Sequence record: NZ_CP029448.1 | Reading direction: 5' to 3' (one strand) | DNA: 64,000 nt | DNA from: a plasmid | Shown: in pieces, positions 8,750 through 22,346 of the stretch | How the letters are laid out: each line of letters begins with the position of its first letter | How positions within the stretch are numbered: position 1 is the stretch's first letter | The notes under the pieces: generated by a model | What the model saw: only the letters and a program-made list of their open reading frames with translations | Databases searched by the model: none | What the model was told of the DNA's origin: nothing | Made by a program: the position numbers and the translations under genes

Positions 8750-9810
8750 TCGATGAGTTGCCGCCCTACCTTGAAAACGCGAGCACTACTGTCATCGGCG
8801 GCGGTACGCTGGCTACCGTGAGCACCTACACACTCAGCTGCCTGATGAGCGCCGCTCTGGAGTTACCGCGTTGCTGCATTGTGATTGCCAACCTATCCGG
8901 CAGCTATGTGGCTCAGACCAAGGCAATTGCCGAAGCAATCTCTAACCTCCAGCAAGAAGCCAGTCGCCAAGCGAGCACCATCACCCCCGTGCAGTTGGCG
9001 GGTACCTGTTCATCCCTAGCGCCTCTCCGCCTTGATGCTGGCAGATTCAGTCTGGCCTCGCGGTTCGACCTACCGAAATATCGGCGGTTACATTGTCCCC
9101 AGAGCTTCAGACCCGGCTGTTACCGGCCACGCCTGTCTGGGTAGGGAACGAGTGGTGGAACAGTCGGTTCCGTCGGGCGTTAACCTGCGGAACAGAAACC
9201 CATGCGACTTTCAGGTCGCACTGCCGAAATAATACTGGTTTCCCTTCTTGGTCTGGTGCATTTCCGGGTCGCGCTTGCCGTCCTTGTTCTTGGTCGAACT
9301 GGGCGCATTGATCAGCGTTGCATCGACGATGGTGCCCTGGCGCAGCGACAGGCCGCGGTCGCCCAGAGCCATTGATGACAGCGAGGATGCCGGCCGCCAG
9401 CTCGTGTTTCTCCAGCAAGCGGCGGAAGTTGAGAATGGTGGTTTCGTCGGGGATGCGCTCCAGGTTCAGCCCGGCAAACTGGCGCAGGATCGTGGTTTCG
9501 TACAGCGCTTCCTCCATCGCTGGATCGCTGTAGCCGAACCAGTTCTGCAGCAGATGCACACGCAGCATCGCCATCAACGGGTAGGCCGGACGGCCACCTT
9601 CACCCTTCGGATAATGTGGCTCGATCAAAGCAATCAAGCCCTTCCACGGCACCACCCGATCCATCTCGATCAGGAACAACTCCTTGCGGGTTTGCTTGCG
9701 CTTGCCAGCGTACTCGGCGTCGGCGAAGGTCATCTGCTTCATCGGGAAACTCGGTGGGTGGAATCCGGGTATTTTGCCAAAATCTGGAAGTCTTCTTCAG
9801 AGTTTCCCTA
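8750..9810 (-). mobile_element. degenerate IS5-family (ISKpn26-like) element, copy 1
   Basis: Transposase N-terminus MKQMTFADAEYAGKRKQTRKELFLIEMDRVVPWKGLIALIEPHYPKGEGGRPAYPLMAMLRVHLLQNWFGYSDPAMEEALYETTILRQFAGL on the minus strand. It is frameshifted after ILAVING and continues in another frame ([38 protein letters not shown]). Distal part is decayed, and the 8750 boundary is approximate. Confidence 0.5.
9107..9742 (-). pseudogene. IS5-family transposase, frameshifted
   Basis: See previous entry. First about 125 aa are intact. Confidence 0.6.
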
Positions 9811-9814
9811 GTGT

Positions 9815-9852
9815 GGGGTTTGAGGGCCAACGATGTAAAAAACCACGTTAAT
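9815..9852 (+). repeat. Tn3-family left terminal inverted repeat
   Basis: Read directly from the sequence. Confidence 0.85.
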
Positions 9853-10012
9853 AGGTTAACCTATTGTTTTATTTTAATTATTAGGTGCTGCATTTACAGC
9901 TACTCCAATGATCATGGGGCTGATGGTCGATGGAACGCAATACCAAGTAGATTGATTGCATAAAGTTCCTTCAATTCCGATCTGCCCTCCCGTTTTCACA
10001 TCCTACTTCAGT

Positions 10013-20052: not shown

Positions 20053-21063
20053 ATGCTGCCGAAACTCGTTATAACTCACCGAGTACACGATGAGATCCTG
20101 CAACTGCTGGCGCCACATTGCGAGCTGATGACCAACCAGACCGACAGCACGCTGACGCGCGAGGAAATTCTGCGCCGCTGTCGCGATGCTCAGGCGATGA
20201 TGGCGTTCATGCCCGATCGGGTCGATGCAGACTTTCTTCAAGCCTGCCCTGAGCTGCGTGTAGTCGGCTGCGCGCTCAAGGGCTTCGACAATTTCGATGT
20301 GGACGCCTGTACTGCCCGCGGGGTCTGGCTGACCTTCGTGCCTGATCTGTTGACGGTCCCGACTGCCGAGCTGGCGATCGGACTGGCGGTGGGGCTGGGG
20401 CGGCATCTGCGGGCAGCAGATGCGTTCGTCCGCTCTGGCGAGTTCCAGGGCTGGCAACCACAGTTCTACGGCACGGGGCTGGATAACGCTACGGTCGGCA
20501 TCCTTGGCATGGGCGCCATCGGACTGGCCATGGCTGATCGCTTGCAGGGATGGGGCGCGACCCTGCAGTACCACGAGGCGAAGGCTCTGGATACACAAAC
20601 CGAGCAACGGCTCGGCCTGCGCCAGGTGGCGTGCAGCGAACTCTTCGCCAGCTCGGACTTCATCCTGCTGGCGCTTCCCTTGAATGCCGATACCCAGCAT
20701 CTGGTCAACGCCGAGCTGCTTGCCCTCGTACGGCCGGGCGCTCTGCTTGTAAACCCCTGTCGTGGTTCGGTAGTGGATGAAGCCGCCGTGCTCGCGGCGC
20801 TTGAGCGAGGCCAGCTCGGCGGGTATGCGGCGGATGTATTCGAAATGGAAGACTGGGCTCGCGCGGACCGGCCGCGGCTGATCGATCCTGCGCTGCTCGC
20901 GCATCCGAATACGCTGTTCACTCCGCACATAGGGTCGGCAGTGCGCGCGGTGCGCCTGGAGATTGAACGTTGTGCAGCGCAGAACATCATCCAGGTATTG
21001 GCAGGTGCGCGCCCAATCAACGCTGCGAACCGTCTGCCCAAGGCCGAGCCTGCCGCATGTTGA
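20053..21063 (+). CDS. ptxD: NAD-dependent phosphite dehydrogenase PtxD
   Basis: 336 aa, [43 protein letters not shown]..., D-2-hydroxyacid dehydrogenase fold. I recognise it as essentially the P. stutzeri WM88 PtxD sequence. Confidence 0.9.
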
Positions 21064-21926
21064 ATCCGGTCTGGCTGAAGAGCCTGGTAGCGATCGTTCA
21101 AACAGGCAGTTTTCAGAGCGCGGCGAGGGCGTTGGGGCTGGCCCAGCCGACGGTGTCGCAGCACTTGCAGAAGCTTGAAGAGCAGGTCGGCGTAACGCTG
21201 GTGCAGCGCAGTCGTAGCGGCTGCCAGCCTACCACACGGGCGCTGGCCTTCATGCCGCATGCGACCGCCTTGCTCGACATGCACGCCCGGGCGCTAGAAG
21301 CCCTGCATGGCAATCGTGAGCGCGTCGGGGCCAGCTCCAACATCGGCACCTACCTTCTCCAGCCATTCGTGCGCAACTATCTGACGACCGCAAATGAGAG
21401 GGGCGAGGTGGATCTGCGCATCGCCGCCAACCCGGATGTGGCCGACCAGCTACTGGCGGGCCAGCTCGACGCCGCGATCATGGAATGGTGGCTACCTCAC
21501 CCCGACTTCGAACACCGCCTCTGGCGGGTCGAGCCGCTGGTGCTTATCGTCAGCCCCGACCATGCGCTGGCTGAAGCAGGGTGCATAGAACGTGATCGTC
21601 TGGTGGACCTGCCGATGCTGGGAGGTGAACCGGGTAGCGGTACCGGACGGCTTCTGACCGAATACTTTGGCGAACTGGGCGTGCCTCGCAGCGGTATGCA
21701 GCTAGGCAGCACCGAGGCAGTCAAACAAGCAGTGAGGGCGGGACTCGGCGTGTCGTTGGTGATGGCTTCCGCAGTACAAGACGAAGTTCGCAGTGGCGCG
21801 CTGGTAGCTCTTCCCATCCCGGGGCTTGAAAAGCGTCTCCAACTGATCTGGCGCAAACCTCCCGGAAATCTGCACCCGCCGGGATTTGTGCGGCACTTAT
21901 TGGAGGAGGCAGATCTAGCTGGATAA
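21057..21926 (+). CDS. ptxE: LysR-family regulator PtxE
   Basis: [42 protein letters not shown]... is a LysR HTH. Overlaps the ptxD stop. Confidence 0.75.
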
Positions 21927-21944
21927 GGTGATGGATGGTTGCGA

Positions 21945-22346
21945 TCCAGCGCTTGGCTTGTCAGCCTAGGGAAACTCTGAAAAAGACTTTCTGATTTGGC
22001 AAAATACCGCGACCCCACCCACCGAGTTTCCCGATGAAGCAGATGACCTTCGCCGACGCCGAGTACGCTGGCAAGCGCAAGCAAACCCGCAAGGAGTTGT
22101 TCCTGATCGAGATGGATCGGGTGGTGCCGTGGAAGGGCTTGATTGCTTTGATCGAGCCACATTATCCGAAGGGTGAAGGTGGCCGTCCGGCCTACCCGTT
22201 GATGGCGATGCTGCGTGTGCATCTGCTGCAGAACTGGTTCGGCTACAGCGATCCAGCGATGGAGGAAGCGCTGTACGAAACCACGATCCTGCGCCAGTTT
22301 GCCGGGCTGAACCTGGAGCGCATCCCCGACGAAACCACCATTTGTT
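21945..22346 (+). mobile_element. truncated IS5-family (ISKpn26-like) element, copy 2 (left end only)
   Basis: The same transposase N-terminus as copy 1 (identical for about 105 aa, 22034-22346), then unrelated sequence. It is inverted relative to copy 1. Confidence 0.55.

Follow-up and report, generated by a model that had tools for sequence, protein, structure and literature searches.

The DNA analysed here, hereafter the window, is a stretch of 64,000 nucleotides from a plasmid (sequence record NZ_CP029448.1). Positions 8668-22553 form a Pseudomonas-derived block of about 6.45 kb without its Tn3-family insert, and this block carries the phosphite-oxidation genes ptxABCDE between two inverted remnants of an insertion sequence (IS) of the IS5 family (Table 1). 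In a preliminary description, the arrangement was viewed as a decayed composite-transposon-like structure or an IS-mediated capture of ptx. Our analysis bears this view out, as an intact unit of 9,077 bp was found at no fewer than three sites in Pseudomonas, two of which have CTAA on both sides. We consider it very probable that the pair in the window is the decayed remnant of an IS-flanked ptx composite transposon. The ptx genes were named from the annotations in two related loci (L001 and L004), and 270 bp upstream of ptxA are kept.

Table 1. Features of the ptx region in the window and of the neighbouring ISKpn26.
Feature	Coordinates	Strand	Comment
Intact ISKpn26 (IS5 family)	7235-8434	plus	transposase 7305-8285; neighbour, outside the pair
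DUF499 anti-phage-associated gene fragment	8668-9001	plus	profile positions 142-253 of ~1,025
Group II intron, 5' 220 nt	9002-9221	minus	starts with GTGCG at 9221; inserted after IS nt 587
IS copy 1	9222-9807	minus	IRL-proximal 586 bp of an IS1384/ISPpu21-like IS5-family element
CTAG beside copy 1 IRL	9808-9811	no strand	flanking IS5-type target, not IS
AGTGT, left copy	9810-9814		5-bp target duplication
Tn3-family transposon	9815-17245		7,431 bp; GGGG-initiated ~38-bp inverted repeats 9815-9852 and 17208-17245
HerA	10013-12079	minus	PADLOC 820 bits
SIR2	12076-13467	minus	PADLOC 517 bits
Resolvase (serine recombinase)	13475-14044	minus	profile match
TnpA	14204-17212	plus	1,002 aa; NF033527 1122.7 bits
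AGTGT, right copy	17246-17250		5-bp target duplication
ptx block	17251-21965	plus	all open reading frames intact
ptxA	17521-18348	plus
ptxB	18345-19208	plus
ptxC	19217-20044	plus
ptxD	20053-21063	plus
ptxE (LysR)	21057-21926	plus
CTAG beside copy 2 IRL	21966-21969	no strand	flanking target, not IS
IS copy 2	21970-22342	plus	IRL-proximal 373 bp, variant B, cut at IS nt 373
ISPst3 (IS21 family), right, istB-side terminal 211 bp	22343-22553	minus	remainder deleted

Both remnants encode the same transposase N-terminus (MKQMTFADAEY..., MKQMTFADAEYAGKRKQTRKELFLIEMDRVVPWKGL...). The list of open reading frames (ORFs) places it on the minus strand from 9742 downwards and on the plus strand from 22034 upwards, in agreement with the preliminary description, and its presence in both copies is far beyond chance. 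A repeat search of positions 7500-24000 revealed inverted arms at 9434-9781 and 21995-22342 (348 nt, 99% complementary) as well as additional arms reaching the IS ends, at 9773-9811 and 21966-22004 (39 nt, 85% complementary). The copies are thus inverted as had been reported, and their transposase-proximal ends, which carry the left inverted repeat (IRL), point inward at ptx. Direct BLAST over the whole shared length gave 97.9% identity across 374 nt; the two segments belong to the same IS. For the ends, an identity of about 90% had been quoted, but the actual value is about 85%, with the differences clustered.

Alignment to full-length copies placed the IS termini (GGAAACTCTG...) at 9807 in copy 1 and at 21970 in copy 2, identified GGAAACTCTGAAAAAG as the IRL of the remnant IS and resolved the internal frameshift already recognised in copy 1 as a 2-bp deletion between 9367 and 9368. 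YTAR is the 4-bp target of this group of IS, CTAG being typical, and the CTAG at 9808-9811 and at 21966-21969 belongs to the flanking target. Likewise, copy 1 had been extended to 8750, which is excluded by the group II intron and DUF499 fragments that occupy 9002-9221 and 8668-9001. Copy 2 is indeed cut, but at 22342|22343 with 373 bp kept, and not after about 400 bp at 22346. Once repaired, the 174-aa translation of copy 1 scores 191.9 bits against NF033581 (cutoff 140) and corresponds to the N-terminal half only, while copy 2 matches Pfam DUF772. The only ends of this IS in the window are the two IRLs; the window as a whole contains neither the right inverted repeat (IRR), which full-length relatives have in addition to the IRL, nor the 3' halves, and no further copy of the IS occurs anywhere in it. 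The antisense ORFs at 9248-9811 (plus) and 21497-22501 (minus) share sequence because the underlying DNA is repeated. Neither has a Pfam match, consistent with their earlier interpretation as mirror artefacts.

The remnants had also been labelled 'IS5-family (ISKpn26-like)'. NF033581 and DUF772 support the family, but the likeness to ISKpn26 does not hold. A tblastn search of plasmids matched the remnant transposase, with 96% amino-acid identity, to a gene of P. aeruginosa that bears the annotation 'IS5-like element ISPpu21 family transposase'. Among full-length DNA relatives, the best is an element of 1,193 bp in plasmid p1 of Pseudomonas sp. 4810-S13 (L004), which is annotated 'IS1384 family' and is 99.7% identical to copy 2 and 98% to copy 1 at the nucleotide level; some truncated copies of the remnant IS are labelled 'ISPst7 family' by RefSeq. 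Judged by these matches, the remnants can be assigned to a Pseudomonas IS5-family element of the IS1384/ISPpu21/ISPst7 type, the names being those given by NCBI annotation to close relatives. The intact ISKpn26 in the window is 99.25% identical to an annotated ISKpn26 in L001 and scores 366.8 bits against NF033581. Isoforms of one IS are conventionally above 90-95% identical. The remnants share 57% amino-acid and 67.6% nucleotide identity with the window ISKpn26 and give no megablast hit, which rules out that they are ISKpn26 and corrects an easy mis-annotation. The ISKpn26 itself is flanked by CGAG and CTAG, a mismatched pair without target duplication, and about 1.7 kb is missing to its left relative to an otherwise identical Raoultella plasmid; this suggests an ISKpn26-associated deletion on the left side of 7235-8434.

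At the left, the IS homology of copy 1 stops at 9222, since a group II intron begins at the next base with GTGCG. Hallmarks of such introns are a 5' GUGYG, domains I-IV, the catalytic domain V/VI and an intron-encoded reverse transcriptase. The fragment in the window combines the GTGCG start with a match of its D1-D4 region to Rfam RF02012 (group-II-D1D4-7; 9019-9167, minus strand, 122.7 bits, E = 5.7e-26); the window contains neither domains V/VI nor the reverse transcriptase. In Pseudomonas sp. NPDC047963 (L034, 1-1161), the same intron occupies the same IS position and runs into a reverse-transcriptase ORF. Another group II intron is inserted 9 nt upstream (window 9230|9231) in P. aeruginosa p382 (L005) and in a Stenotrophomonas plasmid (L006); it is full-length, of D1D4-2 type and carries ltrA (L005 2567-4416). 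The adjoining DUF499 fragment scores 172 bits with NF042962 and 166 bits with the PADLOC DUF499 profile. It is 100% identical in both of these plasmids, where the match starts at 8668, and we place the left edge of the Pseudomonas-derived block at this position. The left truncation is best read as the scar of a group II intron, which the preliminary description had overlooked. As a further observation, the orphan DUF499 fragment, fused to the intron piece, accompanies the ptx block in P. aeruginosa, Stenotrophomonas and enterobacterial plasmids, and in the common K. pneumoniae form ISKpn26 sits inside it, at 8788|8789.

At the right, copy 2 is cut at 22342|22343 because ISPst3 inserted there, and ISPst3 was itself later cut at 22553. 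The segment 22343-22553 is 100% identical over 211 bp to sequence under annotated ISPst3 istB genes in four plasmids, and in S. stutzeri (L019) the same piece is followed by the IstB C-terminus. An identical junction between copy 2 and ISPst3 is present in a metagenome-assembled genome of S. stutzeri (L013); the right truncation therefore arose in Pseudomonadaceae and not in the enterobacterial plasmid. It, too, had escaped the preliminary description and can be understood as the scar of ISPst3. The limits of the whole block are common to L005 and L006 on the left and to L013 and L019 on the right. As the same truncated forms also exist in Stutzerimonas and Pseudomonas (L013, L034, L005) and in the Stenotrophomonas plasmid (L006), the decay predates the move to Enterobacterales.

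The intact unit occurs on Pseudomonas plasmids and chromosomes. Its 9,077 bp comprise a left IS (variant A, split by intron 1), 117 bp, ptx and a full right IS (variant B), and its ptx block is 99.8% identical to that of the window. It was found in L004, L010, L011, L014, L015 and L017, and partly in L016, L018, L028 and L035. Pseudomonas sp. 4810-S13, P. abietaniphila and P. gorinensis (L004, L010 and L015) share one site with CTAA/CTAA flanks. A second site, again CTAA/CTAA, is occupied in Pseudomonas sp. ANT_H4 (L014), and a third, flanked by CTAG/CTAA, in Pseudomonas sp. MPB23 (two chromosomal copies) and P. grimontii (L011, L017 and L018); the partly assembled L016, L035 and L028 show additional left-flank types. 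Removal of the unit together with one CTAA from the first site restores a 397-aa N-acetylmuramoyl-L-alanine amidase, and Pfam Amidase_3 (profile positions 1-173 of 174) spans the rejoined junction. The unit as a whole has matching flanks, whereas neither IS alone has matching flanks of its own, which is direct evidence that IS-ptx-IS transposed as a unit. The 4-bp duplications outside the pair, for which a search had been proposed, exist in relatives, at the two CTAA/CTAA sites; in the window, the outer flanks have been lost. The two MPB23 copies (chromosome 768661-789668 and 4088083-4109090) have identical flanks and probably lie inside a larger duplicated element, and the joined flanks of the MPB23 unit resemble a restriction-modification specificity gene.

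A scan based on PtxD, with one genome per species, yielded about 40 loci at or above 98% identity, which local BLAST mapping sorted into three groups. Group (a) consists of native, IS-free loci of Stutzerimonas and Ectopseudomonas at about 98.3% identity, group (b) of the intact unit described above, and group (c) of many decayed forms, the window type included. The native loci carry CTAG exactly at both points of IS insertion, which allows the capture to be reconstructed as a pair of insertions into a locus of Stutzerimonas type. In S. marianensis (L045), the native sequence runs on past the right-hand insertion site. With respect to the right end of the operon, the final ~8 ptxE codons and the 62 bp that precede the right IS (21904-21965) are unlike most native Stutzerimonas/Ectopseudomonas loci (L036-L046, ~11851), the PtxE C-terminus reading ...LLEEADLAG in the window and ...LLADCCLS in most native loci. 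The ptxE end of the window and the 62 bp match S. marianensis, which may be closest to the donor locus.

The remnant IS exists in two natural variants, A and B, which differ at ~60 informative sites over the first 587 nt in L013 and L034. Copy 1 of the window is of variant A at IS nt 13-45 (8 sites) and of variant B at nt 52-583. In copy 2, nt 13-45 and the sequence from nt 52 on (to nt 373) are both variant B, as are nt 13-45 and 52-583 of copy 1 in L001, the common K. pneumoniae form. The mosaic of the two variants in copy 1 is the reason that the ends of the copies are ~85% identical and the rest 99%. Recombination between the inverted copies, most simply gene conversion, would account for this pattern. 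A single reciprocal crossover (inversion) is ruled out as its source, copy 2 being pure variant B. A Halopseudomonas copy (L028) is another A/B mosaic. As the mosaic demonstrates, the 373-bp inverted repeats are still a substrate for homologous recombination. A Pantoea piersonii scaffold (L024), in which ptx is seemingly inverted relative to the outer IS parts, was not used, since it was scaffolded from short reads across an inverted repeat.

On the basis of the anatomy, the IS type, the empty site of the Tn3-family element described below and the intact relatives with their duplications, all directly observed, we propose the following scheme. Two IS1384/ISPpu21-type copies, 1,193 bp when intact, would have entered CTAG sites to the left and right of a Stutzerimonas-type ptxABCDE, and both copies together with ptx would have formed a composite transposon that was mobile in Pseudomonas as a 9.1-kb unit. 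The left copy would then have been invaded by a group II intron at IS nt 587, followed by deletion of everything past the first 220 nt of the intron; it would also have gained the 2-bp frameshift and been overwritten over most of its length by recombination with the right-hand variant. Invasion of the right copy by ISPst3 at nt 373 and reduction of ISPst3 to 211 bp would have completed the loss of both outer sides. The SIR2-HerA transposon of the Tn3 family entered later, 2 bp outside the left IS terminus, and the ptx block now rides passively on plasmids of Klebsiella and related genera. We infer the order of the decay events, as well as the route of the 6.45-kb block into Enterobacterales plasmids. 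In the window, two IS copies still bracket the cargo, but with no outer IS ends and no intact transposase the block cannot transpose by itself; functional outer ends and an intact transposase are found in L004, L010, L011, L014, L015 and L017, and the duplication around the unit is seen at more than one site in these relatives.

Several observations weigh against this interpretation. The left IS of the window lies at a CTAG 121 bp nearer to ptx than that of the intact unit, both CTAGs being part of the native sequence, and it harbours intron 2 (nt 587) instead of intron 1 (nt 578). It may thus represent a separate insertion, or the product of an IS-mediated adjacent deletion, and not a simple derivative. 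Owing to the different CTAG, direct descent from exactly this intact unit is something that we infer and have not observed, and the loci examined included no intact version of the window arrangement in which the left IS is full-length and immediately adjacent. Moreover, the duplication is imperfect (CTAG versus CTAA) at one of the three sites where the unit is fully flanked, and with a YTAR target a 4-bp flank matches by chance in about 1 of 4 cases. The two IS of the intact unit are only 82-91% identical, and the action of one transposase on both outer ends is putative.

A rival explanation is that of two independent IS insertions on both sides of ptx that never acted as a composite, the block having been moved by another vehicle such as a larger island, an integrative and conjugative element (ICE) or recombination. 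The different CTAG of the window-type left IS speaks for such a history, as do the very varied contexts of the block in Pseudomonas and Stutzerimonas, in which both IS are often already truncated, and the P. aeruginosa island PAGI-7, which has been described with ptxABCDE and mobility ORFs (PMC12024412). We nevertheless judge it improbable. The right junction (ptxE, 62 bp, CTAG, IS variant B) is identical in the window and in the mobile 9,077-bp unit, the left IS end is of variant A in both, and the difference between them is simply accounted for by an IS-mediated adjacent deletion that removed 121 bp up to the next CTAG.

The mosaic bears on the question of whether inversion-duplication or replicative intramolecular transposition of one IS could have generated the inverted pair. 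The copies are 99% identical over IS nt ~50-373, which speaks for such an origin, but their first ~50 nt differ at 8 positions that match the two distinct natural variants, which in other genomes (L013, L034, L004) differ along their whole length. As gene conversion better explains the high identity, and L028 contains a different mosaic of the same variants, a single-IS origin is highly unlikely. Even more doubtful is that the remnants are ISKpn26-like and that the intact ISKpn26 could act on them in trans and re-mobilize the ptx segment. All three elements are of the IS5 family (NF033581), and the ISKpn26 is only 0.8 kb off; however, besides the refuted ISKpn26 identity, the terminal repeats are unlike (GGAAACTCTGAAAAAG in the remnants and GGAAGGTGCGAA in ISKpn26), and the surviving ends are the inner IRLs only, so that a transposase of whatever kind would lack a pair of ends that face outward. 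Overall, 'vestige of a composite transposon' is well supported, though not proven, for the lineage of the window.

The breakpoints of the right-hand IS look like a hot spot. Across genomes, the right-hand IS is broken within nt 369-374 in four different ways: at nt 373 it joins the ISPst3 end (window, L001, L002 and L013), at nt 371 an IS66-family tnpC (L005 and L006, at 10090), at nt 373/374 a trmA-like gene (L009, L012, L021 and L022) and at nt 369 a segment of 7.4 kb, after which comes the ISPst3 end (L007, L019 and L020, at 12286). Four junctions inside 6 bp of a 1,193-bp element are unlikely to have originated by chance. One idea, which is hypothetical, is that the breaks lie at an ancestral ISPst3 terminus that was slightly resected. 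Sequence resemblance alone had pointed to nt 374 as a cryptic internal IS end that might cause the recurrent breakpoint; this does not fit, since the junctions vary by up to 5 nt. The L019-type junction cannot be a simple insertion into the window-type junction, since 4 nt are missing. In the left IS, the two group II introns, which are unrelated, lie 9 nt apart and suggest a shared or adjacent homing site. Because of the breaks at nt 369-374, the neighbouring introns and the repeated A/B exchange, it is conceivable that the scars are non-random, and that the IS holds a homing site common to two intron lineages together with a preferred target or break site of ISPst3; we regard this as tentative and somewhat unlikely. 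If true, these hot spots would be a systematic cause of IS inactivation, with the cargo 'fixed' in place as a result.

The element between the left IS and ptx shows inverted repeats, a large TnpA, a resolvase and a 5-bp duplication, as expected for a Tn3-family transposon. The comparison with ptx plasmids that lack it, which had been proposed previously, uncovered the uninterrupted site, which many plasmids have: in Raoultella, K. pneumoniae, P. aeruginosa and Stenotrophomonas plasmids (L001, L002, L005 and L006), it reads ...GAGTTTCCCTAGTGTGCGCTC... with a single AGTGT. The staggered cut starts 2 bp outside the left IS terminus, and the inverted repeat begins at 9815, 7 bp from that terminus rather than about 4 bp as had been stated. 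Copies of the transposon that are 100% identical occupy other sites in many Klebsiella, Enterobacter and Citrobacter plasmids; at the present site it was not found in PLSDB plasmids or complete E. coli genomes, and no name for this SIR2-HerA transposon was found in the literature searched. The GC content is 33-45% in its cargo half versus 55-66% in the Pseudomonas-derived block. We interpret the insertion as clean, recent and unrelated to the IS pair; its position beside the left IS has no mechanistic link to the pair. In the collections searched, this recent event has no second instance.

The ptx block is present in 628 PLSDB plasmids, mostly at 99% identity or more (575 from Klebsiella and 15 from Pseudomonas), and in 617 plasmids it is 99.6-100% identical. 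The host plasmids are large, mostly conjugative and belong to Klebsiella and related genera; the two examined have IncF replicons. Capture by a pair of IS5-family elements and subsequent disabling of the resulting transposon by other mobile elements would explain how a phosphite-oxidation operon of Pseudomonas/Stutzerimonas came to reside on ~600 sequenced plasmids of the Klebsiella group. Knowledge of this history is useful for annotating plasmids and for following genes on their way from environmental Pseudomonas into clinical Enterobacterales. The feature itself is ordinary mobile-element decay, widespread in sequenced plasmids, and leaves the understanding of such elements unchanged. Its novelty is modest and confined to the apparently undescribed intact composite of Pseudomonas and the breakpoint hot spots. 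The 9.1-kb ptx composite transposon appears to be undescribed, in that no paper on it was found in the literature searched, which reflects the limits of the search and is not proof of novelty.

Compared with known systems, the remnants share with elements of the IS1384/ISPpu21/ISPst7 type the IRL sequence and the CTAG/CTAA flanks, but the window has only 5' pieces of them (586 and 373 bp), one of which is frameshifted and mosaic. ISKpn26 and IS5 of Enterobacteriaceae have the same NF033581 transposase family, 4-bp YTAR targets and a colinear protein alignment, yet ISKpn26 is a separate intact element with different terminal repeats. In the gene table of plasmid pBIC1a, phnC-phnD-phnE-ptxD-LysR, the same ptx genes as in the window, are flanked by 'mobile element protein' entries and ISKpn26 (PMC6286996). 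Like the report on PAGI-7, where ptxABCDE is accompanied by mobility ORFs, that paper lists the genes and contains no analysis of flanking IS remnants. Further inverted-IS composites are the chlorate-reduction composite transposons (cited in PMC10746228). The classical inverted-IS composites Tn5 and Tn10 share with the ptx element a cargo operon bracketed by inverted IS copies. In contrast to these, the window copy is without both outer ends and both transposases, and the IS of the intact ptx unit are non-identical variants (82-91%), the left one split by an intron. Nonetheless, as in composites of the Tn5/Tn10 type, the intact ptx relatives display a duplication around the whole unit at several sites.

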